From NCBI GenBank assembly GCA_037127795.1, contig JBAXXQ010000001.1, positions 252,274-316,273 on the forward strand: 64,000 nucleotides of DNA, read 5' to 3'. This stretch comes from a bacterium. Its GTDB lineage: Bacteria; Patescibacteriota; Minisyncoccia; Phycocordibacterales; UBA9973. Positions within the stretch are counted from its first letter, which is position 1; each line of letters starts with the position of its first letter. This document shows positions 7,945 to 35,088 of this stretch, piece by piece. Both the position numbers and the translations under genes were made by a program. Below the pieces are notes generated by a model. That model did not search any database, was not told the origin of the DNA, and worked only from the letters and a program-made list of their open reading frames with translations.

Positions 7945-7983
7945 CATAGAGTATACTGTATGTATCTCTATGCTTTTATTTTT
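7945..7983 (+). terminator. Hairpin terminator after hpf (overlaps the start codon of the next gene)
   Basis: aagcatagag...ctctatgctt hairpin followed by ttattttttg. Confidence 0.35.
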
Positions 7984-11049: not shown

Positions 11050-11274
11050 TTTGTTTTGTAGTCTTTACATAGTATACTTATAGCGTATATGCGCCACTTT
11101 TTTATCACACACAAGAAAACATTCTTCGCAATGTTATTTGTGATACTTTTTAGTACTACTATCTCTTTTGCTGACCGTGCAAACCCCTACACTGCAGGAG
11201 AAACTCTTGATCCAGACTGTGCGCCAGGAAGTGGGGTGAATTGTACGGTACATATTGCTGGTGGAGGAGGAACT
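11050..11274 (+). repeat. Copy A of a ~225 bp identical cassette (promoter + 5' end of gene)
   Basis: Sequence from tttgttttgtagtctttacatag... to ...gctggtggaggaggaact is identical to 14127-14354 except for a 3 nt GGA indel. Confidence 0.85.
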
Positions 11275-14121
11275 CAGACATTGCAAGATGTAACAACTGC
11301 AGGGAATTCTATAACTAATGATATTGGGAATCTTGCTGATAATACATGGAGGATAAATAGTAATGGTGTTGCAAGATTTGGACATCCTATAACTGGTACT
11401 GGAGTAGAGATAGACCCGGATGGAACTATACAATCAGTTGGTGGTAGTTATTCTACGTTTTTTACCGTGTATCCAGGTGGAGGGCAAATTTTAATGGGAG
11501 ATTTTGATGAAACTAGTGGTAAAACAAAATATTTATTAGATGATGTAGCACAAACCCAAACCTTCAATGCTAATAATGGGTTCTTATTTACAGGTGTTAA
11601 TTATCCAGGAGGGTTTGCAAGTATCAACCCAGATACTAATGAAATATTGTTAGGAGAATTCAACACATCAAATGATAATACACATATAGATATATTAAAT
11701 AATTCAGGACATACAGGTAATTATATAAGAACATATTCAAATCATGGGGAATTTAATAATTTAGGTGAAGGGATTAATTTAGATTTTGAACACAACCTAT
11801 TTCAATTAGGTGTATACAGTCAAGAAGGTCTTCAAACCTATATCTCTTTAGATGACAATGCTCAGACTCAATCTTTTAATGCTAGTAATGGGTTTAATTT
11901 TACAGGAAATAATTTTTCTTATGCAAATAGTGGTGGAGAGTATTTAATTAATGCAAACTTTAATAATCGAACTATTGTAATAGGAGATAATCAGCGTATT
12001 GCTGGTAATGGTAATAATTTAACTATTGATGATAATAACAATCTTATTACTTTAGGTAATATATCTTTAAGTGCTTCAATTGAATTAAACACATGGTCAG
12101 GTATAAATACATATTATGCTTATAGGGGGCATAATTTTACAGGAGGTGGTACATTGTCTACTGATGGTGATATAAGTGTAGGAAATAATATTGGAAACAC
12201 TGTTACAGGAGGATGGAGTATAGATAATGCAGGCGCAGCTCATTTTGCAGCAGGGAGCTTCAGTGTAGAAGGTAATGGTAATATTAATAGTGATGGTCAA
12301 TTAAGCCTTGCGGGTGGTAATGCCGGAATATTTAGTGATGGAAGTTTTAGTACTTATAATAACTCACTTGCTGCTAAAACAATAAGTTACAATGGGCATT
12401 TGTTACAAGTAACAGATAGTGTTTATGGTGGTAATTTTTTTAATGTAACAGAGGATGGTACTTTATCAATATCTCAATCTTCAAGTGGCAACAACACATT
12501 ATACATAAATGGTAGTGGTCAGTTCTATATAGCAGATAAGCAGAATGGTTACCAAACATTTAATGTGGGGTATGATTATTCTTATTTTCAAGATAAATAT
12601 TATGGTACTGGTATAGATGCTCAATATGCAAGATTTGAAAAAGATAATATATTCTTTCAAGATGTAACTGGTACACAGAAATATTTTACAGCTGATACTT
12701 TTGGTATACAAACAACTGATCCGATATCTGGAGTTAATGTGTTAGGTCCTAAATGGCTGTTAGGAAGATATAATACTAGTACTCAATCTTTAAATGTTTC
12801 TGTTGATGGTACACAATATAATATTCCTACGCAAACAATTTCGGTAAATGTATCAAATAATTCCGTATACTCTAGTTTATTAGGAAGTTCTAATTTGGCA
12901 TATTCTAATGTTTTAGGAAATAACGCAGGTCTTGGGGCAAGTGGTACATATAATAATTTTTTAGGACCACTTAGTGGCTTTGGAACAAGTGCCTCTTATT
13001 CAAATTTTATTGGAAACGGTGCTGGAGGGTTTGCGACAAATGCATCTCACTCCAACTTTATCGGAGATGGAGCTGGAGCCTTCTCATCATCTTCATCATA
13101 TTCTACCTTTATAGGTTTTCATGCTGGTGCTGATAGTATTTTTAATCCTTTAAATGGACAAAACAATATTATTATTGGTACAAATATAACTCTTCCTCCG
13201 AGTACAAGTAATGCTATTAATATAGGCGGTGTTTTGTTCGGTCTTAATACTCAAAATGATTATAGTGCCAATACTGCTTATTTTACCGCTGTTACCTCTG
13301 GCAAAATAGGTATTGCTAATGCTAATCCGTATTATACCCTCGACGTAGGTAATTCGTCGGTATCAGGAATAGTAGCTCAGTTCACCAACTCATCAGGTAG
13401 TTGTACTATCTCCCCAACAGGTTCAGCAGTTTCTTGTTCTTCCGACATCAACCTCAAGAAAAATATTGTTGCACTCAAGGATAATACACTCTTCACTCTC
13501 AACACTATCACTACAGCACCAACAGCTACCACACTAGACAAACTCATGACACTTACTCCAGTAAGTTACAACTGGAAAACAGAAAACGATACTGATAATA
13601 AACACACTGGATTCATCGCACAACAAGTAGAACAAGTATTCCCAGATCTAGTAACTACAGATCCAACCACTAATCTCAAATCTCTCAACTATATGGGCTT
13701 TGCACCGTATATAGTACAAGCAATACAAGAAATGAATTTCAAGATGACTGCAATCATTCCTGATGATCTTGATGCGACTGCGTATGCAAAAATAAAAAGT
13801 TTCTTGCATCAAGTTGCAACTGATGGAGAAATTACTTTCAATACTTTGAAAACAACACTTATCACTAGTGATGAAATTCGTGCAAATAAAACAACAACCA
13901 ACCAGCTCTGTGTCGGCACCACTTGTATCGATAGTGATCAGCTTGCAAAAATGCTCCAGTCTGCAAATTCACAAAATACAGCGCCAGGTACTCTTGTAGC
14001 AACTCCAGATACTACACAAACTCCAGCAACACCAGACCCTATACTAGCTCCTACTCCTGACCCAGCCCCAAGTACACCTGCTGTCACCGACACTACGACA
14101 CCTACTGTTTCTACACAATAA
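11089..14121 (+). CDS. Giant secreted tail-fibre-like protein with C-terminal S74-like intramolecular chaperone domain, paralog 2
   Basis: Same architecture; first 62 codons and 44 nt upstream identical to paralog 3; Gly/Ala/Asn repeat block; SSDINLKKNIVAL...YNWK...HTGFIAQQVEQVFPDLV; Pro/Thr-rich C-tail. Confidence 0.7.
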   Translation: MRHFFITHKKTFFAMLFVILFSTTISFADRANPYTAGETLDPDCAPGSGVNCTVHIAGGGGTQTLQDVTTAGNSITNDIGNLADNTWRINSNGVARFGHPITGTGVEIDPDGTIQSVGGSYSTFFTVYPGGGQILMGDFDETSGKTKYLLDDVAQTQTFNANNGFLFTGVNYPGGFASINPDTNEILLGEFNTSNDNTHIDILNNSGHTGNYIRTYSNHGEFNNLGEGINLDFEHNLFQLGVYSQEGLQTYISLDDNAQTQSFNASNGFNFTGNNFSYANSGGEYLINANFNNRTIVIGDNQRIAGNGNNLTIDDNNNLITLGNISLSASIELNTWSGINTYYAYRGHNFTGGGTLSTDGDISVGNNIGNTVTGGWSIDNAGAAHFAAGSFSVEGNGNINSDGQLSLAGGNAGIFSDGSFSTYNNSLAAKTISYNGHLLQVTDSVYGGNFFNVTEDGTLSISQSSSGNNTLYINGSGQFYIADKQNGYQTFNVGYDYSYFQDKYYGTGIDAQYARFEKDNIFFQDVTGTQKYFTADTFGIQTTDPISGVNVLGPKWLLGRYNTSTQSLNVSVDGTQYNIPTQTISVNVSNNSVYSSLLGSSNLAYSNVLGNNAGLGASGTYNNFLGPLSGFGTSASYSNFIGNGAGGFATNASHSNFIGDGAGAFSSSSSYSTFIGFHAGADSIFNPLNGQNNIIIGTNITLPPSTSNAINIGGVLFGLNTQNDYSANTAYFTAVTSGKIGIANANPYYTLDVGNSSVSGIVAQFTNSSGSCTISPTGSAVSCSSDINLKKNIVALKDNTLFTLNTITTAPTATTLDKLMTLTPVSYNWKTENDTDNKHTGFIAQQVEQVFPDLVTTDPTTNLKSLNYMGFAPYIVQAIQEMNFKMTAIIPDDLDATAYAKIKSFLHQVATDGEITFNTLKTTLITSDEIRANKTTTNQLCVGTTCIDSDQLAKMLQSANSQNTAPGTLVATPDTTQTPATPDPILAPTPDPAPSTPAVTDTTTPTVSTQ

Positions 14122-14126
14122 AATTG

Positions 14127-14354
14127 TTTGTTTTGTAGTCTTTACATAGTATACTTATAGCGTATATGCGCCACTTTTTTATCACACACAAGAAAACATT
14201 CTTCGCAATGTTATTTGTGATACTTTTTAGTACTACTATCTCTTTTGCTGACCGTGCAAACCCCTACACTGCAGGAGAAACTCTTGATCCAGACTGTGCG
14301 CCAGGAAGTGGGGTGAATTGTACGGTACATATTGCTGGTGGAGGAGGAGGAACT
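14127..14354 (+). repeat. Copy B of the ~225 bp identical cassette
   Basis: Direct comparison with 11050-11274. Confidence 0.85.
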
Positions 14355-17300
14355 AATGGGTGGGATAGTATGTTGGCGCAAAATCAAGTACAGACGCAGG
14401 ATAGAACTATTGATGTTAATAATAAATATTTACGATTTAGTAATATAAATGAAGTTGATTTTTCTGGGGTCTCTGGTCAAAACACTATTGAAATTGTGGA
14501 AGGGCAGGTAAATATGGGAGATATTGGTGGGGTTGGAAATGGTGTTTATTTTTCAGTTGATAGTCCTAATAATAAAATTTATTCATTGGCTGGAGGAAAT
14601 CCAGCTGGATTGAATCTTGATTTTAATAATCAAATATATGAATTGGGTGATTATGGTCACAATAATGATGCTACAACATTATCAGTAGATAATACTCATG
14701 ATATTATTTCTACTTATAGTGGTTCAAATAATTATAAAAATTCAGGTATTTATTTAGATTATGGAAATGCTGATTTTTATTATGGTGATTATGGTCACAA
14801 TCAAAATGGTACAGCAATTTTACTTGATGATCTAGCTCAAACCCAAACCTTCAATGCTAATAATGGGTTTACGTTTAATACTGACAATGGAGGATTTATT
14901 GTATCAGGTAGCAACAGTTACCATTATCAAGATGGGTTATTAGGGGCAATAATATCAGGTAGAATAGCATTTATAGGGGATAATTCTGGCGACTTTAATA
15001 GTACTAGTTTATTGGTTAATGACAATACTGGACAACAATTTATTGATTTTAATGCGCAAAACGGTTTCCAATTCACAGGAGGTTCTATAAGTAGTGATGG
15101 TAATATCTTACTAACAAACGGGGGTACTATATCTGCAAATGCAAATGATTTACAACTAATAAATAATGGTAATTCAAACTATATAAATGTAGGCGCAGGT
15201 GGTAATATAGAGGCACATTCAACAACTGGTGGGACGATAGCATTACAAGATGATTTAAATGGTGCAAAAATATTAATTAACAATTATGCGGGTGATATTG
15301 AATTAACATCTACTTTAGGAGCACCAATAAAAATGTTTGGAGGTAGTGTTCAAACTGATGGTGATATAGAAGGTGGTGGCAAGATAACCACACCTAATTC
15401 AACATTATTTTCAGATGGTTCTGTAGGACTTCCTCATGCTGCTATTAATGTAGACGGGGGTGGTTATTTATCTAATGGTAATTTTAGTTGGGATGCAGGT
15501 GGAAATATAACTACTTATGGTGATTTAAGTTTAATGGGGGGTAATGCGGGGATATTTTCAAATGGACATATATTTTCGGGGGTAGATGGGTTTAATAATT
15601 TTGATGCAACGCAATCTGGTTCACTTACAATTGCTTCAATTAGTGATGGAACAGCAACATTATTTACTGGTGGCGATGGAGATTTTTACATAGCAGATAA
15701 AACAAGTGGTAACCAAACATTCTATGTAGATGTAGCTGGAATGCAAACAACCGATGCAGTAGCGGGGGCGGGAACACTAAGCCCTGCGTGGAAGCTTGGA
15801 AGTTATAATAGCACTTCTGAATCTGTCGCTGTGTCTATTGGGGGTACACTATACAATCTCTCTACGCATGGTGTCGCACTCGATAGTAACAATAGCTTTA
15901 TTGTCGGAGGGGCTGGATCTTTTGGTGCAAATATAAATTCTGTATATGTAGGATTTGCAGCTGGGACTGGTGCAAATGATGCAAACAATTCAAACTTCCT
16001 TGGTGCAAATGCAGGGCTCAATGCGCAATTTGCAAACCATTCAAATTTCTTTGGTGCAGATGCTGGTAATGGTGCAATCAATGCAAGTGTCTCAAACTTC
16101 ATTGGGTACCAGGCGGGGTATGGGGCTGTGAATGCTACGGGCTCAAACTTCTTGGGGCAAGATGCCGGTCATGGTGCAACATATGCAACCAATTCAAACT
16201 TCTTTGGATTCCAGGCTGGATATGGTGCGCTCGGTAGTAATAGCTCTCCATTTAATAGTAACTTCTTTGGGTATCAAGCAGGGTATGGTGATTACAATCT
16301 CACCGACTCAAACTTCTTTGGATACCAAGCAGGATATATTGCAAATACTGCTATAAGTTCAAACTTCTTTGGAAATAGCGCAGGGTATGGAGCAACTAAT
16401 GCTGCGTATGCAAACTTTATGGGGTTTTATGCTGGGTATGGAGCTGGTAATGCAAACGGCTCAAACTTCTTTGGACGCAATGCAGGAGATTCTGCAAGTA
16501 ATGCATCATATTCAAACTTTATTGGATTTGCAGCAGGTAAGTATGCAACAAATGCTCAAATTTCAAACTTTATTGGAATCGGCGCAGGTCTTGATGCAAC
16601 AAATGCAAGTGAGTCAAATTTCTTTGGAGATAATACTGGGCGTGGTGCAACCAATGCTTCAAATGCAATATTTATAGGTGCAAGTGCTGGGTATAATGAT
16701 GCTGTAAATAATGTTTCAACTGGAGGGTTTTCAATTCTTATAGGGCCACATACAAATACTGGTGGCTATTCAAACAGTATTGCAATAGGTGGCTCTGCTA
16801 CCAATACCGCAACAAATCAATTTATGATCGGCTCAACTTCATTCCCAATCAATACTACTGTCATCAAAGGTGCAAGTACACAATGTACTATCACCACAGG
16901 TACAGGTATTGCATGTTCGTCTGATGCAAGTCTCAAGAAAAATATTGTAGCCGTACAAGATGGTACGCTTGCAAAAGTACTTGCACTCCGCCCGGTAACA
17001 TACAACTGGAATGATGAACAAGATACTGATCCGACACATATAGGATTCATTGCGCAAGAAGTAGAAACAGTATTCCCACAAGTAGTATCTATAGACCCTG
17101 CAACACATCTCAGACTGCTCTCTACGACCTCACTTATTCCTTATACTATCAAAGCTATACAAGAGATGCATATTACTATTACGTCTGTAATTCCAGATAC
17201 TCTTGATAGTACTGCGTATGGCAAAATAAAAGAATTTTTGCGAGAAATTGCTACAGAAGGGAAGGCTGTAGTAGATATTGTACAAACACATACACTCTGT

Positions 17301-17528
17301 GTAGACGATGTGTGTGTCACCCGTGATCAGTTCAAAAACATGGTCCAGCAAGCAGGTCAGCAACAAAGTGCTCCGAGTGTTGTTGTGCCTGTAGCACCTA
17401 GTACAACACCAGTAACCACTCCAACACCAGTTTCATCAGACGCTACTGTAGTAGACCCAGTTGTTACCCCAACACCAAGTCCTGTGGTAGATACTACTCC
17501 TGCTCCTGCATCTTCTGAAAATCAGTAA
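14166..17528 (+). CDS. Giant secreted tail-fibre-like protein with long SNFxG-xAG-GA-NA repeat array and C-terminal S74-like chaperone domain, paralog 3
   Basis: Identical N-terminus to paralog 2; ~17 tandem 14-16 aa Gly/Ala/Asn repeats; CSSDASLKKNIVAV...YNWN...HIGFIAQEVETVFPQV; Pro/Thr/Val-rich tail. Confidence 0.7.
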   Translation: MRHFFITHKKTFFAMLFVILFSTTISFADRANPYTAGETLDPDCAPGSGVNCTVHIAGGGGGTNGWDSMLAQNQVQTQDRTIDVNNKYLRFSNINEVDFSGVSGQNTIEIVEGQVNMGDIGGVGNGVYFSVDSPNNKIYSLAGGNPAGLNLDFNNQIYELGDYGHNNDATTLSVDNTHDIISTYSGSNNYKNSGIYLDYGNADFYYGDYGHNQNGTAILLDDLAQTQTFNANNGFTFNTDNGGFIVSGSNSYHYQDGLLGAIISGRIAFIGDNSGDFNSTSLLVNDNTGQQFIDFNAQNGFQFTGGSISSDGNILLTNGGTISANANDLQLINNGNSNYINVGAGGNIEAHSTTGGTIALQDDLNGAKILINNYAGDIELTSTLGAPIKMFGGSVQTDGDIEGGGKITTPNSTLFSDGSVGLPHAAINVDGGGYLSNGNFSWDAGGNITTYGDLSLMGGNAGIFSNGHIFSGVDGFNNFDATQSGSLTIASISDGTATLFTGGDGDFYIADKTSGNQTFYVDVAGMQTTDAVAGAGTLSPAWKLGSYNSTSESVAVSIGGTLYNLSTHGVALDSNNSFIVGGAGSFGANINSVYVGFAAGTGANDANNSNFLGANAGLNAQFANHSNFFGADAGNGAINASVSNFIGYQAGYGAVNATGSNFLGQDAGHGATYATNSNFFGFQAGYGALGSNSSPFNSNFFGYQAGYGDYNLTDSNFFGYQAGYIANTAISSNFFGNSAGYGATNAAYANFMGFYAGYGAGNANGSNFFGRNAGDSASNASYSNFIGFAAGKYATNAQISNFIGIGAGLDATNASESNFFGDNTGRGATNASNAIFIGASAGYNDAVNNVSTGGFSILIGPHTNTGGYSNSIAIGGSATNTATNQFMIGSTSFPINTTVIKGASTQCTITTGTGIACSSDASLKKNIVAVQDGTLAKVLALRPVTYNWNDEQDTDPTHIGFIAQEVETVFPQVVSIDPATHLRLLSTTSLIPYTIKAIQEMHITITSVIPDTLDSTAYGKIKEFLREIATEGKAVVDIVQTHTLCVDDVCVTRDQFKNMVQQAGQQQSAPSVVVPVAPSTTPVTTPTPVSSDATVVDPVVTPTPSPVVDTTPAPASSENQ

Positions 17529-24145: not shown

Positions 24146-26596
24146 ATGGCAGAAAAAATACCAGTAGAAGAAGAAATCGCACGAGGAAAGACTGTTCCGG
24201 TAAATATTGTACGCGAGATGAAAGATAGTTTTATCGACTATGCGATGAGTGTTATTACTGATCGTGCGCTTCCTGATGTGCGTGATGGATTGAAGCCGGT
24301 ACACCGACGTATTTTGTATTCTATGCATGATAGTGGGCATACTGCATCTGCAAAATTTGTAAAATCTGCTCGTATTGTCGGAGACGTGCTTGGTAAATAC
24401 CATCCACACGGAGACACATCAGTGTATGATGCTATGGTAGGTATGGCACAGCCATTCTCATATAGATATCCGCTCATTCAAGGGCAGGGAAACTTCGGAT
24501 CTGTCGACGGTGATAGTGCTGCTGCGATGCGTTATACCGAGGCTCGTATGTCAAAACTCGCTAGTGAAATGATGCGAGATATCGAAAAAGATACTATCGA
24601 TTTTCGTCCCAACTACGACTCAACTCGCAAAGAGCCGTCTGTGCTTCCAACAGCAGTACCAAGTCTTCTTTTGAATGGTACATTGGGTATTGCGGTGGGT
24701 ATGGCAAGTAATATTCCTCCACACAACCTCGGTGAAGTGGTAGATGCATGTTTGCACCTTATAGAGCATGATGATGCTACAAATGAAGATATCGCAGAAT
24801 TCATCAAAGGGCCGGATTTCCCAACAGGAGGAATTGTATTTAATAAAGCCGATATTTTACACGCTATTGCGACTGGTCGCGGTGGTGTAGTATGTCGCGG
24901 AGAAGCTGAAATAACAGAGACAAAATCAGGGTTATATCAGATTACTGTATCGTCTTTGCCGTACCGTGTGAACCGTGCAACCTTTGTAGAATCTATTGCA
25001 AATCTCGTACAAGAAAAGAAGCTTGAAGGAATCAAATCTCTTGACGATCTTTCTGCAAAAGATACACGCATTGTTGTAGGACTCAAGACTGGAGTAAATC
25101 CACAAAAAGTTTTGAACTTCTTGTACAAACACACCCAACTCGAGCAAACATATCACTACAACATGGTGGCACTTGTTGATGGTGTGCCAGAGACACTTTC
25201 TATCAAGTCTATTTTGAATGCATTTATTGGACATCGTGAAGTAGTGATTCGTCGTCGTACTGCATTTGATTTGCAAAAAGCAAAAGACCGTGAGCATATC
25301 TTGCTTGGTTTGAAAAAAGCACTCGATCATATCGATCGGATCATTAGTCTTATCCGTGCCTCAAAAGACTCTGCTGCTGCAAAAGTTAATTTGATAAAAG
25401 AATTTAAATTCTCTGATTTACAAGCAGATGCTATTTTGGAAATGCGTTTGCAAAAATTGGCAGGTCTCGAAAGAAAAGCGGTGGAGCTTGAATTGAAAGA
25501 AAAACAAGAACTCATCAAAGAGCTCGAAAGTCTTCTCGCAAGTACTAAAAAAATCTTCAAAGTTATTGCTACAGAATTGGCAGAAATAAAAGACAAATAT
25601 GGTGATGAGCGAAAAACAAAAGTTATTGCTGGAGGAACAAATAAAGTAAGTGATGAAGATTTGATCCCAGAAAAAGATTCTATCTTGGTATTTACTGCGG
25701 GTGGGTATGTGAAGCGTACAGATCCAGATGAATATAAAATGCAAAAGCGTGGAGGTGTCGGCGTGGTAGATCTCGAAACAAAAGAAGAAGATTTTATTAC
25801 ACAACTTTTGGTGACAGATACACATAGTGATTTGTTGTTCTTTACCAATCTTGGTAAGGCATACCAAATAAAAATGTATGAACTTCCAGAAGGACGTCGT
25901 GCAACAAAAGGTAAGTCTATTATGAATTATTTGTCTCTTGCATCAGATGAGCAGGTGACTTCTATTCTCGCTGTACCAAAGAAATTGAAAGAAGAAAAAG
26001 CTTCATTGATGCTTATCACCAAACAAGGTGTTGCCAAAAAAGTTTCTTATGAGAGTTTCAAAGATGTTCGTCGCAGTGGTATTATCGCTATTCGTTTGGA
26101 CAAGGGTGACGAGCTCGGCAATGTGCTTCGTGTACAAAAAAATAATAGTGTTATTCTTGCAACAAAGACTGGGCAAAGTATCCGCTTCTTGGAAACAGAT
26201 ATTCGTGAAATGGGACGTACTGCAGGAGGGGTACGTGCTATGAAGCTTGGAAAAAATGATGTAATTATCGGTGCTGATGTAGTACAAGAAGAAAAAGATG
26301 TGTTTATGCTTGTAATGGGTGCAAACGGTCTTGGTAAGAAAACAGCAATGGAAGAATACAAGATTCAAAAGCGTGGAGGCTCTGGTATAAAGACTGCAAA
26401 AGTAACTGCAAAAACAGGAGAACTTATGGTTGCAAAAATTGTAAAGAACGACAGTGAGCTTGTTGCTATGTCAAAGAAAGGACAAGTGATCCGTGTAGAC
26501 CTCAATACTATTCCTTCATCAGGAAGACAAACACAAGGAGTAACAATCATGAAGCTTCGCGCAGGAGACTCTCTTGCAAGTGTAACTTGTGTGTAA
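24146..26596 (+). CDS. gyrA: DNA gyrase subunit A
   Basis: [29 protein letters not shown]; QRD-region; C-terminal beta-pinwheel repeats; 816 aa. Confidence 0.9.
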
Positions 26597-27164: not shown

Positions 27165-28466
27165 ATGACAAGTTTTAAAAACATTTTACTTGGACTCTTT
27201 ATTGTACTTTTTGTCGGCGCTATTTTGGTATTTTCTGGGGTGATAAATATTGGTGGGACGACACAACAAAAAGTGCAAACAAATTTATCCCTTTGGGGAC
27301 CGTTTCCTTCAATTGCTATGCAGGGTATTATTACTGATTTTAATAATATTGATACGTATACACAAATTAGTTATACCCAAGTCTTACCAAATGATTTGCA
27401 TAGGCAGCTCGTCGAAGCTATCGCTTCAGGGAAAGGACCTGATATGGTCATTTTTTCAAACGAAAATTTCTTACAAGATATTGATAAGTTATATGTAACA
27501 CCTTTTGCTACATATCCTGAGAGAACATTTCGTGATACGTATATAGATGGAGCTAGTACGTTTTTAAATAATGATGGTGTTGTTTTGTATCCGCTCGTTG
27601 TTGATCCTTTGGTTGTGTATTACAACAAAGATCTTCTTGCTGCTGCAAAATATATCTATCCTCCTCGTACATGGTCTGGGCTCAATCAAAGCGTGCCACT
27701 ATTTTTGAAAAAAGATAAAACAGGTATTACGCAAAGTGCTATTGCATTGGGTGAATCTCCTAATATGGAGCATTTCAAGAAAATATTTTCTACTCTGTTA
27801 TTACAATCAGGGGTTCCTGTTGTTTCTTATAATACTGATGCAAAGAGGTATTTAGTAAAACTTAATACTGAGCGATCTGACCCAAATAAAGCGACACCAC
27901 AAGAACAAGCATTTTTGTACTATCAATCATTTGCTGATCCGACAAGTCAGCTCTACAGTTGGAATAAAAAACTTCCAGAAGCACAAGACGCGTTTCTTTC
28001 TGGAAAGAGTGCCTTTTATCTTGCTCCCGCTAGTGAATTGTTTGAAATTCAAACAAAAAATCCAAATCTTAATTTTGATACGACGGCAATGTTTCAACCA
28101 GACAATGCGGTAAGACCTATTACATACGGTACTATTTATGGTGTAGGTATTCTCAAAAATAGTTCAAATCTTGCTGTTGCGTACAATGTACTCGGTTCTC
28201 TTTTGGGAAAAGATATTGTCGATACTATATCAAAACAGGTATCACTTCCTCCGGCACGTCGTGACCTTTTACAGGTACAACCAGCAAATCCATATGCTGC
28301 AGTATTTTTTAATCAAGCACTACAAACATTTACATGGCCTGATCCTGATAAAAATGGTACTGATACTGCCTTTCGTGATATGATAAGACAAGCAGCTTCA
28401 GGGGAAAGAGATATTAATCAAGCATTATATGAAACACAAAATCAAATTCAATCTTATATTCAGTAG
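27165..28466 (+). CDS. Extracellular solute-binding protein (ABC family 1, MalE-like), membrane-anchored, orphan
   Basis: N-terminal TM anchor; PLVVDPLVVYYNKDLL...PPRTWSGL matches the SBP family-1 signature; no adjacent permease or ATPase. Confidence 0.5.
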   Translation: MTSFKNILLGLFIVLFVGAILVFSGVINIGGTTQQKVQTNLSLWGPFPSIAMQGIITDFNNIDTYTQISYTQVLPNDLHRQLVEAIASGKGPDMVIFSNENFLQDIDKLYVTPFATYPERTFRDTYIDGASTFLNNDGVVLYPLVVDPLVVYYNKDLLAAAKYIYPPRTWSGLNQSVPLFLKKDKTGITQSAIALGESPNMEHFKKIFSTLLLQSGVPVVSYNTDAKRYLVKLNTERSDPNKATPQEQAFLYYQSFADPTSQLYSWNKKLPEAQDAFLSGKSAFYLAPASELFEIQTKNPNLNFDTTAMFQPDNAVRPITYGTIYGVGILKNSSNLAVAYNVLGSLLGKDIVDTISKQVSLPPARRDLLQVQPANPYAAVFFNQALQTFTWPDPDKNGTDTAFRDMIRQAASGERDINQALYETQNQIQSYIQ

Positions 28467-28824
28467 TTTATTTTTATTCATAACAGCTATACCAGCTTTT
28501 GCAAAAGGTCCAGCAGGAAGTGTTATAGGTATTCCTTGTGATGGAGTAAATTGTAACATTGAGGATATTTTTACCTTGATTAATAATCTCATAAAATTTG
28601 CTATTACAAAATTATTTTTCCCAATTTTTATTGTAGCTATTTTGTACATTGGATGGAGTTATCTTACCGCTGGTGGAGATACCAAGAAGGTTGCTAATGT
28701 AAAACAAATGGCTTGGCATATGTTTTTAGGGGTAATCCTTGTTCTTGCATCATGGCTTATTGTTAAAACAGTACTCGATGTACTAGGGGCAACAGATGCG
28801 GGGATGTTTTTGACAGGTAATTAA
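28429..28824 (+). CDS. VirB2/TrbC-like pilin-type protein 1 (signal peptide + two-helix hairpin)
   Basis: Sec signal (AIPAFA/KG), then two long hydrophobic helices separated by a TAGGDTKK loop; overlaps the SBP gene by 38 nt. Confidence 0.5.
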   Translation: MKHKIKFNLIFSSLFLFITAIPAFAKGPAGSVIGIPCDGVNCNIEDIFTLINNLIKFAITKLFFPIFIVAILYIGWSYLTAGGDTKKVANVKQMAWHMFLGVILVLASWLIVKTVLDVLGATDAGMFLTGN

Positions 28825-28840
28825 TGTATACTTATATTAT

Positions 28841-29323
28841 ATGCAATATAAAAATCTTAAAAAAATATTCGCTGTAGGTATATTTTTGGGAATAATGTTT
28901 TTTTCAAATTTGTTAGTATTTGCTCAAGGTAACCCTGGTGCAAATAGTACTGGGACACCAACAAATAATCCTGGTGCAAATGCTACAGCAAATCAAACAA
29001 CTCCATCTGCTACGGCAAATAATACTGTTATTCCGCCAGGAGATACAAAGATAAGTTATAGTATTAATAACCCGCTTGGAGTTACTAGTATTGATGAGGT
29101 TATACAAAAAATAATGGCTGTTATAGTTAAACTCGCAGTTCCTGTAATTATCTGCCTCTTTTTATATACAGGATTTATGTTTATTACAGCACAGGGAGAT
29201 ACCACAAAATTAAAAACAGCAAAAACTATGCTTTGGCAAGTAATTGTAGGAACTATTATTATCCTTGGTGCATGGGCTATAGCAGCTGCTATTGTTACAA
29301 CAGTAAGCTTAATAACAGGATAA
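28841..29323 (+). CDS. VirB2/TrbC-like pilin-type protein 2 with Asn/Thr/Pro-rich spacer
   Basis: Signal (LLVFA/QG); low-complexity NPGANSTGTPTNNPGANATANQTT linker; helix-AQGDTTK-helix C-terminal hairpin. Confidence 0.5.
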   Translation: MQYKNLKKIFAVGIFLGIMFFSNLLVFAQGNPGANSTGTPTNNPGANATANQTTPSATANNTVIPPGDTKISYSINNPLGVTSIDEVIQKIMAVIVKLAVPVIICLFLYTGFMFITAQGDTTKLKTAKTMLWQVIVGTIIILGAWAIAAAIVTTVSLITG

Positions 29324-29324
29324 T

Positions 29325-30476
29325 ATGAAAAGATTTTTATTCTCACTCATACTAATAGTAAGTATATCAATCCCGGCATTTGCCTTTGCTGGAGAGATAA
29401 CAGCACAAAGTCAGTGTAAAAATTTATCTAGCATTTCAACAAGTGCTCAATATACTATTTGCTGTACGAGTACTTTTAAGGCCGCTATTTGTAGTAGTCT
29501 TACCACAAGTCAACAATGCACTTTAGGAGTACTTCCTGCGGATCAATGTCAGAATCAGTGTGATTCTATAAAATCAAAAAATGACTATGATGTATGTTGT
29601 AATCTTTCTGATCATCCTATTTGTAAGTCACTTTCAGTACCAGAACAATGTGCATACGGAGCGCCTATTAATCCATCGCTCTGTGTGTCTACGCAACAGC
29701 AAGTGACCCAGAATCAACCTCAAACATACACTCCTGGTGCGACTTATACATCAGGGCAATGTGATGCATTTTCTAGTATTGATTCTTTGGATAAGTACAA
29801 TAGTTGTTGTGTTGATTTAAAAACAAATACTCCTCATTCTCCTCAACCTACAAGTTGTCTTACAATGACAAAAAATCAACAATGTGCTCTGGGGGTACTT
29901 CCTGCTGATCAGTGCCAGAATCAATGTAGTTCTATTACCTCTAGGGATGATTATACGACTTGTTGTGCAGGTGCTGTTGTTGCCAACTCATGTGTTGCAT
30001 TATCACAAGCAGATATATGTTTGTTCAAAACTTTTAATTCTACTATTGAGGCAACAAATGCGGGCTGTCCGGATGCAAATATTGCCGGGTTTGTTTCTCC
30101 TGGTTCTGGGGTTGGGGGAAGTCTTTTAGGGGGTGATCCTTTGGGAACATATAGTAAAAATGTTGTCGTAGAAACAACCTGTTCAAAAGTAAATCTTTCA
30201 AAAGTTGACTTGAAAAGTTTTTGGAGTTTCTTTTTGTGGGTTCGATGTTTTATAGGAAGTCTATTTCCATTATTGATGACAATTGCGTTCCTTGTCTTTA
30301 TGTGGAATATTGTCAACTACATAATTAAACCTAATGCATTAAAGAATAATGAGCGCCGTACATATATAATCGCGGGATTAATAGGGTTATTTGTTATTGT
30401 TGGTATGTGGGGCTTGGTTGCATTCACAACATCAACCCTTGGAATAGGAAGTGTTATACCACAGCTGCCATTGTAG
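29325..30476 (+). CDS. Cys-rich secreted modular protein with C-terminal VirB2-like two-helix membrane hairpin
   Basis: Signal (AFAFA/GE); two ~110 aa tandem Cys-rich modules (QQC.LGVLPADQCQNQC.SI.S..DY..CC repeated); C-terminal FFLWVRCFIG...AFTTSTLGIG hairpin. Confidence 0.5.
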   Translation: MKRFLFSLILIVSISIPAFAFAGEITAQSQCKNLSSISTSAQYTICCTSTFKAAICSSLTTSQQCTLGVLPADQCQNQCDSIKSKNDYDVCCNLSDHPICKSLSVPEQCAYGAPINPSLCVSTQQQVTQNQPQTYTPGATYTSGQCDAFSSIDSLDKYNSCCVDLKTNTPHSPQPTSCLTMTKNQQCALGVLPADQCQNQCSSITSRDDYTTCCAGAVVANSCVALSQADICLFKTFNSTIEATNAGCPDANIAGFVSPGSGVGGSLLGGDPLGTYSKNVVVETTCSKVNLSKVDLKSFWSFFLWVRCFIGSLFPLLMTIAFLVFMWNIVNYIIKPNALKNNERRTYIIAGLIGLFVIVGMWGLVAFTTSTLGIGSVIPQLPL

Positions 30477-30545
30477 ATTTGATATATAGGTGTGGTATAC
30501 TATAAGGGTACTAAATAATTAAAAGATAGTAATTAATTGTAATTT

Positions 30546-30926
30546 ATGAAAAAATTTTTGATAGCATTAAGTGCAGTACTTGTTCCTGCAAGTTTGTACG
30601 CACAATCACCAAGTCATTTGAATAATCTTATAGATGAAATTTTTAACCTTGCAAATAAGGCTGTTGCGTTTTTGATGATATTGGCAACATTGTATTTTAT
30701 CTGGGTTATTATAAAACTTATTACACAAACAGATTCTGCAAAAAGAAAAGAAAACAAAGAGCAAGTAAAATGGGCAGTTATTGGTCTTGCTATTATGGTC
30801 TGTGTATGGGGTCTTATCCGTTTTGCTGCTGATACTCTTGGTATTAGTACAACTAATGGAAACCAAAATAATATTGCAATCCCTTGTCCACCAGGTACAA
30901 ACCCTGTTGGAGGTGGTTGTCGTTAA
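30546..30926 (+). CDS. VirB2/TrbC-like pilin-type protein 4
   Basis: Signal (SLYA/QS); two hydrophobic helices separated by a TQTDSAKRKENKEQ loop; Gly/Cys C-tail. Confidence 0.5.
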   Translation: MKKFLIALSAVLVPASLYAQSPSHLNNLIDEIFNLANKAVAFLMILATLYFIWVIIKLITQTDSAKRKENKEQVKWAVIGLAIMVCVWGLIRFAADTLGISTTNGNQNNIAIPCPPGTNPVGGGCR

Positions 30927-30940
30927 GCTACTACAATACT

Positions 30941-31315
30941 ATGTTGTCTGAATTTATTGCATTTGCACAGGTATCACACGATCAGACATTAGAAGGTGTT
31001 TTATCTCGTATTAATTATTATATTATCAATCCCGCAATTATGTTGCTTTTTACGATAGCGACAGTGGTATTTATTTGGGGGATTATAAAATATATTAGAA
31101 ATGCTGCAGATCCAAAAAAGCGTAAAGAAGGACAAGATCATATGTTGTGGGGGATTATAGGATTTACTATTATGGTAGGAGTATACGGGATTATTACTAT
31201 AATTACTCAATTTTTTGGGTTCTCAAATGTAACTGTAACTCCAACAAAAATAAAAGTAACTCCTCAAAATATCCCATCGGTAAAAATTAAATCTTTTAAT
31301 TTACCTACTAAATAA
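30941..31315 (+). CDS. VirB2/TrbC-like pilin-type protein 5
   Basis: Start chosen at ATG 30941 (track ORF 30884 overlaps the previous gene); two helices around RNAADPKKRKEGQD. Confidence 0.45.
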   Translation: MLSEFIAFAQVSHDQTLEGVLSRINYYIINPAIMLLFTIATVVFIWGIIKYIRNAADPKKRKEGQDHMLWGIIGFTIMVGVYGIITIITQFFGFSNVTVTPTKIKVTPQNIPSVKIKSFNLPTK

Positions 31316-31334
31316 AAACTACCTACAAATAAGA

Positions 31335-31368
31335 AAAGCCTTCCTGAAATCAGGAAGGCTTTTTTTTT
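31335..31368. terminator. Bidirectional rho-independent terminator
   Basis: aagccttcctga-aa-tcaggaaggctt followed by TTTTTTTTT. Confidence 0.6.
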
Positions 31369-31388
31369 GTGGAATAAGGAACATAACA

Positions 31389-31997
31389 TTACTTTGGATC
31401 TGATATTTCTACGTGTAATTTTTTTACAGGAGTAATTGTGTGTATAACAATAACGCACAATCTCGGAAAGGTTGTATTTGTTTGTTCGATAGTTGTATTG
31501 TTTTTTACACGATAGTAAAAAAGTTTTTTTGCATCTCGTGCAAAAACTTCAAACTCACCTGATTCAGAAATTGTTTCAAATCGCTTCATGTCTGGAGCGG
31601 TAAACTTAATCGTTTCATCAGATTTCAAATCCATTTCTTTTCCAAAAGTAACTCTCGGTGTACACATTTCTTTGAAAGTGTATTTAATCTTTTCTGGCCA
31701 TACAAAATCAGGTGGATTCCACGAAATTAGTATGATACAGAATAAAATTATTCCAATGAGCCACCAAATCCAGGAAGGAAATGAACTTGGTTTTTTAAAG
31801 TTTTTTACTAAAAAGTAAATACCAGTAAAAAACCCAACAATGCCCACCATATATAACATCCAAACCCCCATGAATAACCAGAAAATCAGGATAATGATTG
31901 CGAATATCAATAAAGCAGCAAGTGTGTAAAATAAAAATAATTTTTTACTACTCTTGTGGGCTTTACGAGTCCCGTATTGATTACTACTGTTGTCCAT
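31389..31997 (-). CDS. Membrane protein with C-terminal beta-rich domain (possible NfeD-like partner of the upstream SPFH-like protein)
   Basis: Two or three TM helices then a soluble C-terminal domain; start taken at MDNSS (31997) to limit overlap. Confidence 0.4.
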   Translation of the reverse strand: MDNSSNQYGTRKAHKSSKKLFLFYTLAALLIFAIIILIFWLFMGVWMLYMVGIVGFFTGIYFLVKNFKKPSSFPSWIWWLIGIILFCIILISWNPPDFVWPEKIKYTFKEMCTPRVTFGKEMDLKSDETIKFTAPDMKRFETISESGEFEVFARDAKKLFYYRVKNNTTIEQTNTTFPRLCVIVIHTITPVKKLHVEISDPK

Positions 31998-32988
31998 TAT
32001 TACCTCCTCTTTTTTTTGTACCAGTTTCTTCATCATCTTTTCCAAGTAGAATCGATTCTAGTGTTGATAGAGTACCACCTCCTTGATTAAAATACTTAAG
32101 TCCTTGCGGAAGGCCTTTGTTCGATGCTTCTGCTACTTTTGCAAGATTTTCAGATGTTTTGTTAATAAAATCTGCATGAGCTTTATATTTTTTCTCAATA
32201 AATTTCATGTTTACCTCATTCATTGCATCTTGTCCTTTGGCTTTAAGTTCTTCTGTTTTAAGGATGTGTTCTTGTGCTTTAGTATTGTTTTCTTCTATAC
32301 CAATATTTTCTTCTGCATTTAAAAAATCTTGCGATTCTTCAGCTACAAAGATATATGGTATAGCAGGGAAGCCTAAAATTTTGAATTGATTAGAGGTAAA
32401 AAAGTCAGAATTATTAAGCTTGGTGATATCTTTATCTATCTCACTTAATATATCTGTACCTGCTACTTGTCTAATTTCTTTAAACTTTTTTTTGCTTGCC
32501 CACTCACGAACAACACTAATCACTTGGTTATGGATCTGCCCCAATGGATCTTCGAGACCTTTTGCTTTTATTGGGTTTCCTATCTCTACTGAGATTTGAA
32601 GTACCAATTCCAGACTTGCTGCATCTTCAGATATTACTTCCGCAACATCAAGATGTGATTCATTTTTCATAATATCTACCCATTCCTCTCTTGTCCCAAT
32701 TACTAATTTAGATTTTAAGAATTGTCTTAGGTTGATATATTTTTTTCTCTCCACACCATTTATGGTGATCATTTCAGTTGCCGCAGATTCTACATCTGCA
32801 ACTTCTTCTTTCCAGCGAAGTTTAACCTTGCTTGTTCCATAAGGCCAAACAATAAGAGGGAAATTGGCATCGGTAATACCGCTAGGGTCGCTTGGGTCAT
32901 TTATGATCCAGTCAACGTCTTTGCCAAATTTTGTCATGATGGTATATACTCCAGTCTTTTCTGGTACCAATTGGATAAATTTTGTCAT
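31984..32988 (-). CDS. SPFH/band-7 (flotillin)-like protein, TM-less (tentative)
   Basis: N-terminal beta-rich region (LIVWPYGTSKVKLRWKEE...ITINGVERKKYINLRQ) then a long Lys/Glu/Ala coiled-coil tail, as in flotillin-like proteins. Confidence 0.35.
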   Translation of the reverse strand: MTKFIQLVPEKTGVYTIMTKFGKDVDWIINDPSDPSGITDANFPLIVWPYGTSKVKLRWKEEVADVESAATEMITINGVERKKYINLRQFLKSKLVIGTREEWVDIMKNESHLDVAEVISEDAASLELVLQISVEIGNPIKAKGLEDPLGQIHNQVISVVREWASKKKFKEIRQVAGTDILSEIDKDITKLNNSDFFTSNQFKILGFPAIPYIFVAEESQDFLNAEENIGIEENNTKAQEHILKTEELKAKGQDAMNEVNMKFIEKKYKAHADFINKTSENLAKVAEASNKGLPQGLKYFNQGGGTLSTLESILLGKDDEETGTKKRGGNNGQQ

Positions 32989-33115: not shown

Positions 33116-34186
33116 ATGTTAGAACGATTTGAAAAGGCGCTACATTCGCAAGAAAACCCAACGAATGAAAAAGGGTATGAGCCTAGCTTAAAAGAAGTTT
33201 TGAAGAAAAAAGAAGACTCTGATTTATTTGGTGAATTACTCAAAAGAGAAGGTAAGATAAATCTTGCTACCCGACTGGCAAAAGGTGAACTTACTGAATC
33301 TGATATCGAAGAACTCGATGAATATCGGACTGACTTTATGGGATCTATGGATCGAGTTAAAACAGTAAAAGAATCTATATCAAAAGAGCTTATTCATGCA
33401 TATACAAGACATAATTCAGACCTACAGAAAGTAATTTCTTTGGTGGGGGTAGATGAATATGAATCAATAGTAAAAGATAAATTGGCACGTCTTTCTATTA
33501 CAGCACCAGATGATTTTGAGGCTTTGTATAGATCTGTTGAAAGTAAGAATGATTACAAAGACGGGTATTATAAAAACTTAGATGAGCGAGTTGTTGCTCT
33601 CTGTAAAGAAAAAAAGATTAATCCAGAAGAATACTTCAAGGCTATCCTTGTTGAAGATCCTGATGAAAGAGAAGAAGCATTGCGAACTGTTGTACGTAAG
33701 GGGTATTCTTGGTTTGGAAAAGCAACAGATTGGCTTTCTAAGGGGGCGTACTCTAGAGATGATAGAGATACACTAACTGATACTTCAAGGTATATCTTTA
33801 GTGCGAACGATGATATGCGGGATGCTCAGGGTGAAGTCGGATATTTTCTCGCAGCTCTTACTTCAAATGAGGTTATTCGAAATGCTGTTTCAAAAGAGAT
33901 AATTGGAGATCCTGCAAATAAAGAAGTTTTTGAAGGTTTTAGTACTATAAAAAATGAACAACCTACAAAAGAAAAGGTTCAATTAGATTGGAATTCTTAC
34001 AAAGCTCAAGTAAAAGATTGGGCAGATCTTACTCCTGACGATCAGGATATGCACCGAGAGTCATTTCTGGATACTCAAAAAGAATTGTATGAGAAACAGC
34101 AAAGTAAAAAAACTAGTTTCTGGTCTTCAATTTTTGGAAGTTTCTTTGATCTCTTTGCTACTATTAATAAAGATAGTCTTAAATAA
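33116..34186 (+). CDS. Hypothetical highly charged alpha-helical protein (356 aa)
   Basis: ORF track; no recognisable motif; hydrophobic C-terminal tail. Confidence 0.45.
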   Translation: MLERFEKALHSQENPTNEKGYEPSLKEVLKKKEDSDLFGELLKREGKINLATRLAKGELTESDIEELDEYRTDFMGSMDRVKTVKESISKELIHAYTRHNSDLQKVISLVGVDEYESIVKDKLARLSITAPDDFEALYRSVESKNDYKDGYYKNLDERVVALCKEKKINPEEYFKAILVEDPDEREEALRTVVRKGYSWFGKATDWLSKGAYSRDDRDTLTDTSRYIFSANDDMRDAQGEVGYFLAALTSNEVIRNAVSKEIIGDPANKEVFEGFSTIKNEQPTKEKVQLDWNSYKAQVKDWADLTPDDQDMHRESFLDTQKELYEKQQSKKTSFWSSIFGSFFDLFATINKDSLK

Positions 34187-34191
34187 TATAT

Positions 34192-34404
34192 ATGACACAC
34201 GAAGAACTATATACTACATTCATGGATTTTGTTGAGAAAAATGATGAAATAGGAGCACGGCAATTTCTCATCGATCATCTGAATGATTTTCCTGAAGAAA
34301 TACGAAAACAAATCGCTTTTGAATTTTTTGTTGACGCAGTTAAAAAAGATGAGGCTATTGAGTCTATTCAAAAAAGAGCATTAGAGATTATTACACAAGA
34401 ATAA
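34192..34404 (+). CDS. Hypothetical small acidic protein (70 aa), co-transcribed with 33116
   Basis: 5 nt after the upstream stop; terminator follows. Confidence 0.35.
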   Translation: MTHEELYTTFMDFVEKNDEIGARQFLIDHLNDFPEEIRKQIAFEFFVDAVKKDEAIESIQKRALEIITQE

Positions 34405-34446: not shown

Positions 34447-34522
34447 TGGTGCGCCTAGCAGGACTTGAACCTGCGACATTCTCCTTAAGAGGGAGCTGCT
34501 CTACCAACTGAGCTATAGGCGC
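34447..34522 (-). tRNA. tRNA-Lys (anticodon CTT), CCA encoded
   Basis: Reverse complement GCGCCTATAGCTCAGTTGGTAGAGC...CTCTTAA...GGTTCAAGTCCTGCTAGGCGCACCA folds into a cloverleaf. Confidence 0.8.
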
Positions 34523-34623
34523 ATATTTATTTTGTAAAAGTATTTTTCTATAGTATCACTTTGCGAACGGAGCCGCTACAACTGAACTATGGGTGCGTAT
34601 ATGCATTTTATAAAAATGCCGTG

Positions 34624-34705
34624 TGCCGAGGAGAGGACTTGAACCTCCATACCTCGCGGTGCTTGCTCCTAAGGCAAGTGCGTCTACCAATTTCGCCACC
34701 TCGGC
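34624..34705 (-). tRNA. tRNA-Leu (anticodon TAG), long variable arm, no encoded CCA
   Basis: Reverse complement GCCGAGGTGGCGAAATTGGTAGACGC...CTTAGGA...GGTTCAAGTCCTCTCCTCGGCA. Confidence 0.8.
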
Positions 34706-34740
34706 ATGAATCATACTATATACTATCTTTGTAGGTTTTT

Positions 34741-34900
34741 CAACAAAACAATTTATTTGGGACTCGGTCACGAGTTACTAATTCGCCTTGCTCATAAGTA
34801 CTCGCGACCCCGCCTCAGCGCTGTATCGCCTCCCAGGCGCGCGCTTCCGGCTTTCTCGTCTGCACTCAAGGCAATCATAAAAAATACTCAAAAGAGTGTT
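34741..34900 (-). ncRNA. Candidate structured RNA (GC-rich island within the tRNA operon); identity unknown
   Basis: Local GC is much higher than the surrounding spacers; complementary segments ggtcacgagt...actcgcgacc, GCGCGC palindrome, CCGGAAGC; no ORF; co-oriented between two tRNA-Leu genes. Confidence 0.2.
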
Positions 34901-34911
34901 TTTTATGATTG

Positions 34912-34994
34912 TGCCCGAGGCGGGACTCGAACCCGCACGACATCACTGTCTGAGGATTTTAAGTCCTCTATGTCTACCATTCCATCACTCGGGC
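34912..34994 (-). tRNA. tRNA-Leu (anticodon TAA), long variable arm
   Basis: Reverse complement GCCCGAGTGATGGAATGGTAGACATAGAGGACTTAAAATCCTC...GCGGGTTCGAGTCCCGCCTCGGGCA. Confidence 0.8.
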
Positions 34995-35016
34995 AAAGAA
35001 CACGCAAAATGCGTTG

Positions 35017-35088
35017 AGGTCCGGGCGAGAATCGAACTCGCGTATAGTTCTTTTGCAGAGAACCGCCTTACCACTTGGCCACCGGACC
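35017..35088 (-). tRNA. tRNA-Cys (anticodon GCA)
   Basis: Reverse complement GGTCCGGTGGCCAAGTGGTAAGGCGGTTCTCTGCAAAAGAAC...GCGAGTTCGATTCTCGCCCGGACCU; discriminator U. Confidence 0.8.

Follow-up and report, generated by a model that had tools for sequence, protein, structure and literature searches.

A predicted VirB2/TrbC-like pilin with a duplicated, orphan cysteine-rich ectodomain in a variable pilin array of a Patescibacterium

The DNA analysed here is a 64-kb stretch of contig JBAXXQ010000001.1 from an uncultivated, ultra-small Patescibacterium of the Nomurabacteria group (hereafter the window), and it contains a tandem array of five genes for pilin-like hairpin proteins, the third of which (29325-30476, plus strand) is the main subject of this study. 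The gene at this array position 3 encodes a protein of exported architecture in which a duplicated cysteine (Cys)-rich module is fused to the two-helix core of its neighbours. Its ATG lies 1 nt past the stop codon of the preceding gene and is preceded by an AGGA Shine-Dalgarno-like motif. The open reading frame (ORF) encodes 383 amino acids (aa), as stated in the initial annotation of this DNA, and contains 26 Cys residues, slightly fewer than the ~30 counted there. Twenty-four of these fall within 218 residues (aa 31-248), and the other two are C286 and C308, the latter at the start of the first hydrophobic helix. His is nearly missing (2 of 383 residues). Hydropathy peaks at aa 3-25, 302-334 and 346-372, with a basic loop, KPNALKNNERR, between the last two, and a full-length AlphaFold model has two long helices in the C-terminal part (aa 296-334 and 341-371). 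The features of the gene and its surroundings are collected in Table 1, in which nucleotide coordinates refer to the whole window and residue numbers to the 383-aa Cys-rich protein.

Table 1. Coordinates of the Cys-rich pilin gene, its parts, the array and related features. L numbers denote related loci, and coordinates that follow an L number belong to that locus. A slash in a peptide marks a cleavage site; dN/dS, ratio of nonsynonymous to synonymous substitution rates; pLDDT, predicted local distance difference test score.
Feature	Coordinates	Strand	Basis
Cys-rich ectodomain plus T4SS_pilin-type core, 383 aa, array position 3	29325..30476	+	ORF translation, orthologue, dN/dS
Sec-type signal peptide, aa 1-22 (MKR, hydrophobic core, AFA/GE)	29325..29390	+	hydropathy; A-x-A cleavage motif predicted from sequence
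Cys-rich module 1, aa 23-122, 12 Cys; sub-modules A (aa 29-76) and B (aa 77-121), CQNQC junction	29391..29690	+	repeat alignment; AlphaFold
Gln/Thr/Pro-rich inter-module linker, aa 123-143	29691..29753	+	60% identity to orthologue
Cys-rich module 2, aa 144-250, 12 Cys; sub-modules A' and B'	29754..30074	+	repeat alignment; dN/dS 0.09
Gly/Ser-rich stalk, aa 251-285, least conserved part	30075..30179	+	57% identity, dN/dS 0.35; pLDDT <30
Pilin core, aa 286-383: C286...C308, helix 1 (~302-334), KPNALKNNERR, helix 2 (~346-372), C-terminal IPQLP	30180..30473	+	hydropathy, BLASTP, profile
Array position 1, 131-aa T4SS_pilin	28429..28824	+	PF18895 27.3 bits
Array position 2, 160-aa pilin-hairpin protein, Asn/Thr/Pro-rich N-terminal stretch	28841..29323	+	PF18895 23.0 bits, E 8.6e-5 (sub-cut-off); hairpin-profile match
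Array position 4, 126-aa T4SS_pilin, C-terminal C-x10-C tail	30546..30926	+	PF18895 44.6 bits; Mbov_0395 family 41.7 bits
Array position 5, T4SS_pilin, ORF 143 aa as listed	30884..31315	+	PF18895 34.9 bits
13-bp GC-containing perfect stem-loop, T/A runs on both sides	31334..31363		between the convergent array and the 31389-32045 (-) gene
Hypervariable island	27165-32988, versus L001 7870-14086		protein identity, dS versus flanks
Ectodomain plus C-terminal T4SS_pilin fusions in relatives	L079:14526-16736, L026:14312-16003, L072:5844-7370, L020:14379-15647, L056:8222-10003		Pfam

The two tandem Cys-rich modules claimed initially are borne out by repeat alignment. Aligned over residues 23-122 and 138-250, the modules have 40% identity and agree in all 12 Cys columns and in a stretch of the form LGVLP-x-x-QCQNQC; the local alignment score of 176 compares with 40.7 +/- 7.8 for shuffled sequences (z = 17), and 0 of 1000 shuffles scored as high. 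The peptide strings that had been quoted for both modules are present in the translation. The repeat is also visible in the DNA, although its identity was overstated at ~75%: 62 of 87 positions (71%) agree between 29514-29600 and 29880-29966, against a background of 27 +/- 5% for 87-nt pairs within the gene, and a DNA repeat search delimited 100 nt at 72% (29489-29588 versus 29855-29954). Both modules divide further into a pair of six-Cys sub-modules with the pattern QC-x(3-6)-SI-x(5)-Y-xx-CC-x(7-15)-C-x(8)-C-x(9-15)-C, which makes the ectodomain a four-fold A-B-A'-B' repeat; pairwise sub-module z-scores in the shuffle test are 3.9-15. Judged from these alignments, it arose through duplication of a two-unit block.

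The C-terminal core was compared with the proteins of 80 related loci, which are genome regions around gyrA from Nomurabacteria and Paceibacteria. GyrA of the window (24146-26596) is at most 82% identical to those of GTDB species representatives, and the closest species are assigned to Candidatus Nomurabacteria, Paceibacteria or Paceibacterota (Patescibacteria, or candidate phyla radiation). In 72 of the 80 loci, gyrA, a methyltransferase gene and a gene for a solute-binding protein are followed downstream by a pilin array, nearly always of five genes. A hairpin profile built from the five window pilins and run on six-frame ORFs of the gathered loci identified 361 pilin-like ORFs.

Within the window, the C-terminal hairpin matches that of its neighbours, as the initial annotation had noted: by BLASTP it is 37% and 35% identical to the two downstream genes (E 3e-12 and 9e-11). 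Across loci, the best matches of the core were position-3 pilins (39 of the 42 hits listed past itself and two orthologue copies), at 32-45% identity (E 6e-22 to ~6e-14). The whole Cys-rich protein gave no Pfam match at E <= 0.1, and its orthologue reached 17.7 bits on PF18895 (T4SS_pilin), where the gathering score of the family is 26.6 bits. Because the protein's own score lies under this cut-off, its membership rests on transitive homology, through two downstream neighbours (44.6 and 34.9 bits) and position-3 relatives that exceed it (L015, 28.9 bits; L006, 30.1 bits; L065, 36.4 bits). Position 3 of L065 is itself the E 6e-22 match to the window core. A profile of position-3 cores, that of the window protein included, had 2209 matches among 5.8 billion proteins; the best 120 were 91-193 aa long and 109 of them were annotated as PF18895. 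A Cys pair ahead of helix 1, C286 and C308 in the window protein, is invariant across 18 position-3 cores, which also end in a conserved Pro-containing motif that reads IPQLP in the window protein and in short forms, and xVPxLQT in the closest clade. These comparisons make for a solid, transitive assignment of the core to the T4SS_pilin family and place it as an orthologue of the position-3 pilins of related genomes.

The initial annotation spoke of a pilin array without giving its type, and the array stands. A type IV pilus (PilA-like) reading, which would call for a class III signal peptide (G/F-x-x-x-E), one hydrophobic helix at the N-terminus and a globular domain after it at the C-terminus, was rejected: the Cys-rich protein has a Sec leader (AFA/GE), paired C-terminal helices and no Pfam pilin or N_methyl match. 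It does have the leader, two hydrophobic helices and short basic loop of VirB2/TrbC-like pilins, and the window pilins are accordingly classed, by homology to PF18895, as VirB2/TrbC-like pilins of type IV secretion systems (T4SSs).

The Cys module, in contrast to the core, is an orphan in both sequence and fold. No sequence match to it was found in Pfam, NCBIfam or PDB, and scans of GTDB species representatives and Joint Genome Institute (JGI) metagenome contigs yielded no relatives of the Cys-rich protein. A word-seeded search with the ectodomain among 5.8 billion proteins returned P0001 (99%) and P0002 (72%) only. An exhaustive HMMER search with a module profile, covering 1.84 billion cluster representatives (~15 billion proteins), returned its own cluster and two spurious repeat proteins, so that just two near-orthologues turned up in a space of that size. 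Of the two spurious proteins, P0003 is a junk tandem repeat and P0004 has FN3-like repeats with LGVLP in common. The only usable ectodomain model, built by AlphaFold at the level of the module (pLDDT 74), consists of eight short helices, and a fold search with it found no structural match. The "knot-like" fold suggested initially is therefore unsupported, and a knottin reading was rejected. The module thus matches no known domain, and a basic loop links the hydrophobic helices of the hairpin, so that neither a common domain nor a hairpin unfit to span the membrane, either of which would have told against the initial reading, was encountered; the fusion of the two is genuine.

Related genomes place this fusion in a wider pattern. 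Position-3 proteins of relatives range from 97 to 389 aa. In more distant relatives they are usually 97-188 aa and lack an ectodomain, while in the closest clade (GyrA 77-82%) they are 201-311 aa and carry one to three copies of a 4-Cys unit, [SQ]C-x2-[IV]-x3-N[YF]-xx-CC-x(7-16)-C-xx-[YF], with Thr/Pro linkers between copies (L004, L005, L008-L013, L015, L019 and others). A single 6-Cys unit occupies the position in L007 and L016, and a Cys-poor ectodomain without Pfam match in L006 and L018. L075 (15059-15808) and L076 (15750-16580) have two complete pilin hairpins in tandem within one polypeptide. The 6-Cys pattern is confined, among pilin ORFs, to position-3 proteins, and the relatives' Cys units have no match in Pfam. 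The position-3 slot is thus a hotspot of ectodomain diversification, of which the window form is one lineage-specific version.

Array position, the Cys pair, the Pro-containing motif and the [NY/DY]-xx-CC units place the window protein in a position-3 subfamily with C..CC..C units, as defined here. By this position and pattern, the window modules likely descend from the Cys unit of the relatives. When the window sub-modules were aligned with the relatives' units (hhalign), the QC..SI..Y..CC elements corresponded (probability 57%, P 1.1e-4); a hidden Markov model of the relatives' units was not significant against the window ectodomain, since 422 of 2000 composition-preserving shuffles scored at least as high. 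Searching with a two-unit profile of the 4-Cys units found nothing at E <= 0.01, because the unit is too short and too divergent for a database that large.

Ectodomains are not limited to position 3 or to Cys units. Among hairpin ORFs of the gyrA-region loci, 85 of 356 are at least 200 aa long and 47 of 356 at least 300 aa. Large array members of 423-737 aa carry fn3 or Pur_ac_phosph_N, IPT/TIG, PKD-like or CHB_HEX_C_1 domains N-terminal to the T4SS_pilin hairpin (examples in Table 1), and some of these large proteins have a weak Pfam TrbC match. The arrangement is inverted at position 5 of L067 (16186-18021), where an N-terminal hairpin is followed by a ~500-aa extension with an internal three-fold repeat. 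Because other array members carry such domains, ectodomain-pilin fusion is common in the clade rather than peculiar to the window gene. The novelty claimed initially therefore holds for the orphan module and fails for the architecture of an ectodomain on a pilin core, although the T4SS literature considered here makes no mention of fn3, TIG, PKD or CHB_HEX_C_1 domains joined to T4SS_pilin.

The orthologue of the Cys-rich protein, P0002, is 72-73% identical, retains all 26 Cys residues and lies at a syntenic locus, and three independent assemblies carry the frame uninterrupted. The two genes differ by a synonymous divergence (dS) of 1.26 with an overall dN/dS of 0.15 (module 1, 0.19; module 2, 0.09; core, 0.13; stalk, 0.35). 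The protein is under purifying selection, which rules out a pseudogene and is consistent with a functional surface component that diversifies fast. In the comparison of these two genomes (window and L001), the GyrA, IF-2, RbfA, S1 and Lactamase_B proteins are 97-100% identical, with a dS of 0.38 for gyrA, while identity drops to 62-89% for the solute-binding protein and all five pilins (dS 0.55-1.5). Two minus-strand genes just downstream of the array are 22-32% identical, which amounts to replacement. Because the pilins and the solute-binding protein are far more diverged than the flanks, the array lies in a hypervariable island, a pattern that suggests recombination or long-maintained divergent alleles.

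A model for the protein can be assembled from these properties. Signal peptidase I would remove aa 1-22; a Peptidase_S26 gene is present at the syntenic position in L001. The C-terminal helices would enter the membrane as a hairpin whose basic loop faces the cytoplasm, or the lumen in an assembled pilus, leaving the N-terminal 263 residues outside the cell. In the structures of F- and T-pili, the pilin termini face outward and the loop lines the lumen. The ectodomain comprises four six-Cys, probably helical sub-modules, and its 24 Cys and the C286/C308 pair would form 13 disulfides and leave no free thiol. Disulfides are proposed because the Cys count is even, all 26 residues are kept in the orthologue and the pre-helix pair is invariant. 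They might be formed by MdbA- or VKOR-type oxidoreductases, and MdbA-like oxidoreductases and VKOR are enriched in Patescibacteria (10.1101/335083). The fifth and sixth Cys of each unit may pair with each other, closing the invariant CTLGVLPADQC loop, since the 4-Cys units of relatives lack both. The pilin core would serve as membrane anchor of the module or, if the protein polymerises, present it on the outer face of a pilus, and the module itself may be a rigid, protease-resistant device for recognising or adhering to a host or partner surface. Of the roles considered, a surface-displayed, disulfide-stapled recognition role on a T4SS pilin appears the most likely. That the protein is a Sec-exported VirB2/TrbC-like pilin that displays such a recognition or adhesion module on the cell surface or on a T4SS pilus is judged somewhat better than an even bet, and the "tip adhesin or minor pilin" of the initial annotation is a putative role that we infer in the same way.

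Canonical conjugative pilins offer one close comparison. In TraA of F, TrbC of RP4 and VirB2 of Ti, signal peptidase I removes the leader, and the two-helix hairpin has outward-facing termini and a loop that faces the lumen and cytoplasm; adhesion in these systems is the task of a separate tip protein (VirB5). The window protein shares the leader and two-helix hairpin, as predicted from its sequence. However, the mature N-terminal segment of canonical pilins is a few to ~20 residues long and lacks a Cys module, whereas the window protein has its ectodomain fused to the pilin itself.

Within the phylum, VirB2-like arrays are widespread and comprise 2-11 genes with ~25% mean identity, and many of them do not adjoin virB4 (Wang et al., 2023, Cell, PMC10633639; Quinonero-Coronel et al., 2025, PMC12102498). 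The window array resembles these published arrays in the leader, two hydrophobic helices and basic loop of its members and in being a tandem set of divergent paralogues: it has five genes, and the core of the Cys-rich protein is 14-32% identical to the other four in a multiple alignment. It differs in sitting by gyrA rather than virB4 and in that one member bears a 263-aa orphan Cys-rich ectodomain, whereas the published pilins are described as small. The position-3 pilins of Nomurabacteria (e.g. L004, L005, L009 and L015; L007 and L016) share array position, core subfamily and the [SQ]C...[NY/DY]-xx-CC...C signature, but carry one to three simple units (C-x10-12-CC-x7-16-C, or a single 6-Cys unit) with Thr/Pro linkers. 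The window protein instead has four six-Cys units in A-B-A'-B' order with an invariant LGVLPADQCQNQC junction, and the similarity of these units to the simple ones is marginal. Two neighbouring array genes also resemble the two-helix Mbov_0395 family of pilin-like conjugal transfer proteins (NCBIfam NF045849) from a Mycoplasma integrative and conjugative element, at 41.7 and 39 bits against a cut-off of 40; the Cys-rich protein has no match to this family, which lacks an ectodomain. What is new here is therefore a VirB2-like Patescibacterial pilin with a lineage-specific, orphan, four-fold six-Cys ectodomain, its core being of a type already known.

Several observations weigh against the proposed display of the module on a T4SS pilin. 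In Pfam, the C-terminal 105 aa matched PF18895 alone, at 16.0 bits (E 0.013) against the cut-off of 26.6. The full-length AlphaFold model, obtained from a three-sequence alignment, has a pLDDT of 50.5 and is unusable for the ectodomain, and the homology of the six-Cys sub-modules to the simpler units of relatives is weakly supported. Neither VirB4 nor VirB6 was matched among the larger ORFs of the 64-kb window scanned against Pfam, and no T4SS channel gene of any kind adjoins the array. The packing of known T4SS pili may leave little room for a 263-aa domain on each subunit. Moreover, a pilus is only a possibility for Patescibacterial T4SSs, none of which has been observed to form one (PMC10633639; PMC12102498).

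The absence of adjoining T4SS channel genes and of any demonstrated pilus also speaks for a non-polymerised, membrane-anchored surface protein, with the hairpin as anchor and the Cys domain as a receptor, envelope-structural module or sensor. The same core is found in relatives with ectodomains of up to 737 aa, with double hairpins and with C-terminal extensions, and such very large fusions are difficult to accommodate in a densely packed filament. Yet the core belongs to a family related to TrbC and VirB2, and the five divergent paralogues mirror the VirB2-like arrays in the T4SS cluster of Saccharibacteria. This explanation is considered unlikely, though it deserves to be kept in mind.

A second alternative, that the ectodomain is an extracellular metal- or sulfide-binding domain with its 24 Cys as ligands (metallothionein-like or a cluster scaffold), takes its appeal from the very high Cys density (24 in 218 residues), the CC and C-x3-C motifs and the lack of a structural neighbour pointing to a known disulfide fold. 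It is quite improbable. Disulfide-forming enzymes are enriched in the phylum (10.1101/335083), and the domain is predicted to be extracellular, with a Cys count that is strictly even and conserved. In addition, His makes up 2 of 383 residues, and the 4-Cys units of relatives are too sparse for metal clusters.

The protein might also be the precursor of a Cys-rich toxin, bacteriocin, signal or similar factor that is freed by cleavage of the stalk, in which case the hairpin would merely hold it for a time or help its export. Secreted effectors typically contain small, repeated modules rich in disulfides, and the stalk (aa 251-285) is flexible and poorly conserved. This is nevertheless very improbable, as no protease site or processing enzyme is evident and the core matches the modules in conservation (dN/dS 0.13) and has short, cargo-free position-3 pilins as orthologues. 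Finally, although its database homologues are limited to two near relatives, a non-functional ORF, either a chance frame or a decaying pseudogene with a low-complexity repeat, is effectively refuted by the conservation of 26 Cys at 73% identity and the dN/dS of 0.15, together with a frame intact in three assemblies, a conserved array position and a ribosome-binding site.

Display of a recognition module on a T4SS pilin, the preferred reading, has implications for how these bacteria contact other cells. T4SS genes are essential to the epibiotic lifestyle of the one genetically tested Patescibacterium; in Southlakia epibionticum, the pilin subunits predicted within the T4SS cluster are among the essential genes, and a survey detected no T4SS adhesin in Patescibacteria (PMC10633639; PMC12102498). 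Pilin cores with exported ectodomains of their own provide a testable candidate for the recognition element of a Patescibacterial T4SS, and the orphan Cys repeat module is amenable to expression and structure solution. Taken singly, the gene is narrow in scope, being lineage-restricted, represented in three assemblies and of predicted function. The broader pattern is that of interchangeable ectodomains on pilin cores, and their presence in a hypervariable array of conserved position bears on the role of Patescibacterial T4SS pilins. A tentative generalisation, which we would not yet call probable, is that Patescibacterial VirB2-like arrays are modular display scaffolds, each encoding a T4SS filament or surface lattice on which interchangeable ectodomains (fn3, TIG, PKD and Cys-stapled helical repeats) set host or partner specificity. 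If so, the arrays would supply the adhesin reportedly lacking in these T4SSs, the far faster divergence of the locus relative to the rest of the genome would be explained, and the six-Cys sub-module would be a new disulfide-rich fold for host recognition.

The position-1 protein of the array has a weak Pfam match to TrbC (23.3 bits, cut-off 27.9). The true start of the position-5 gene is probably an internal ATG just past the position-4 stop, and the stem-loop that follows is likely a bidirectional terminator closing the array. The position-4 pilin ends in IPCPPGTNPVGGGCR, a C-x10-C tail, and a similar tail, CPPGTTPYGGRCL, ends the ORF at L019:16305-17012. Position-4 proteins of most relatives have exactly two Cys, which suggests that a small disulfide loop is conserved at their exposed C-terminus.

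Elsewhere in the window, the sole gene resembling T4SS machinery among the larger ORFs scanned is 59395-61281 (+), 29 kb from the array, which encodes a TrwB/VirD4-like coupling-protein ATPase (TrwB_AAD_bind, T4SS-DNA_transf and TraG-D_C). It is directly followed by a gene for a protein with a Lamin-tail domain and PKD (61285-62601, +). The same scan found no gene for DsbA, MdbA or VKOR, which is uninformative for a region of 64 kb.

Three consecutive plus-strand ORFs of 1010-1120 aa (7970-11044, 11089-14121 and 14166-17528) end in Peptidase_S74 (E 2e-14 to 3e-17), the intramolecular chaperone of endosialidases and tail fibres, and look like tail-fibre-like surface fibres on a Patescibacterial chromosome. 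Between the variable region and rbfA/infB, at 33116-34404 (+) and 34447-35088 (-), are four clustered tRNA genes (Lys-CTT, Leu-TAG, Leu-TAA and Cys-GCA) and two ORFs without Pfam matches. According to the gene tables, the interval from the array to rbfA is shorter in L001 and holds three differently sized genes without Pfam matches.

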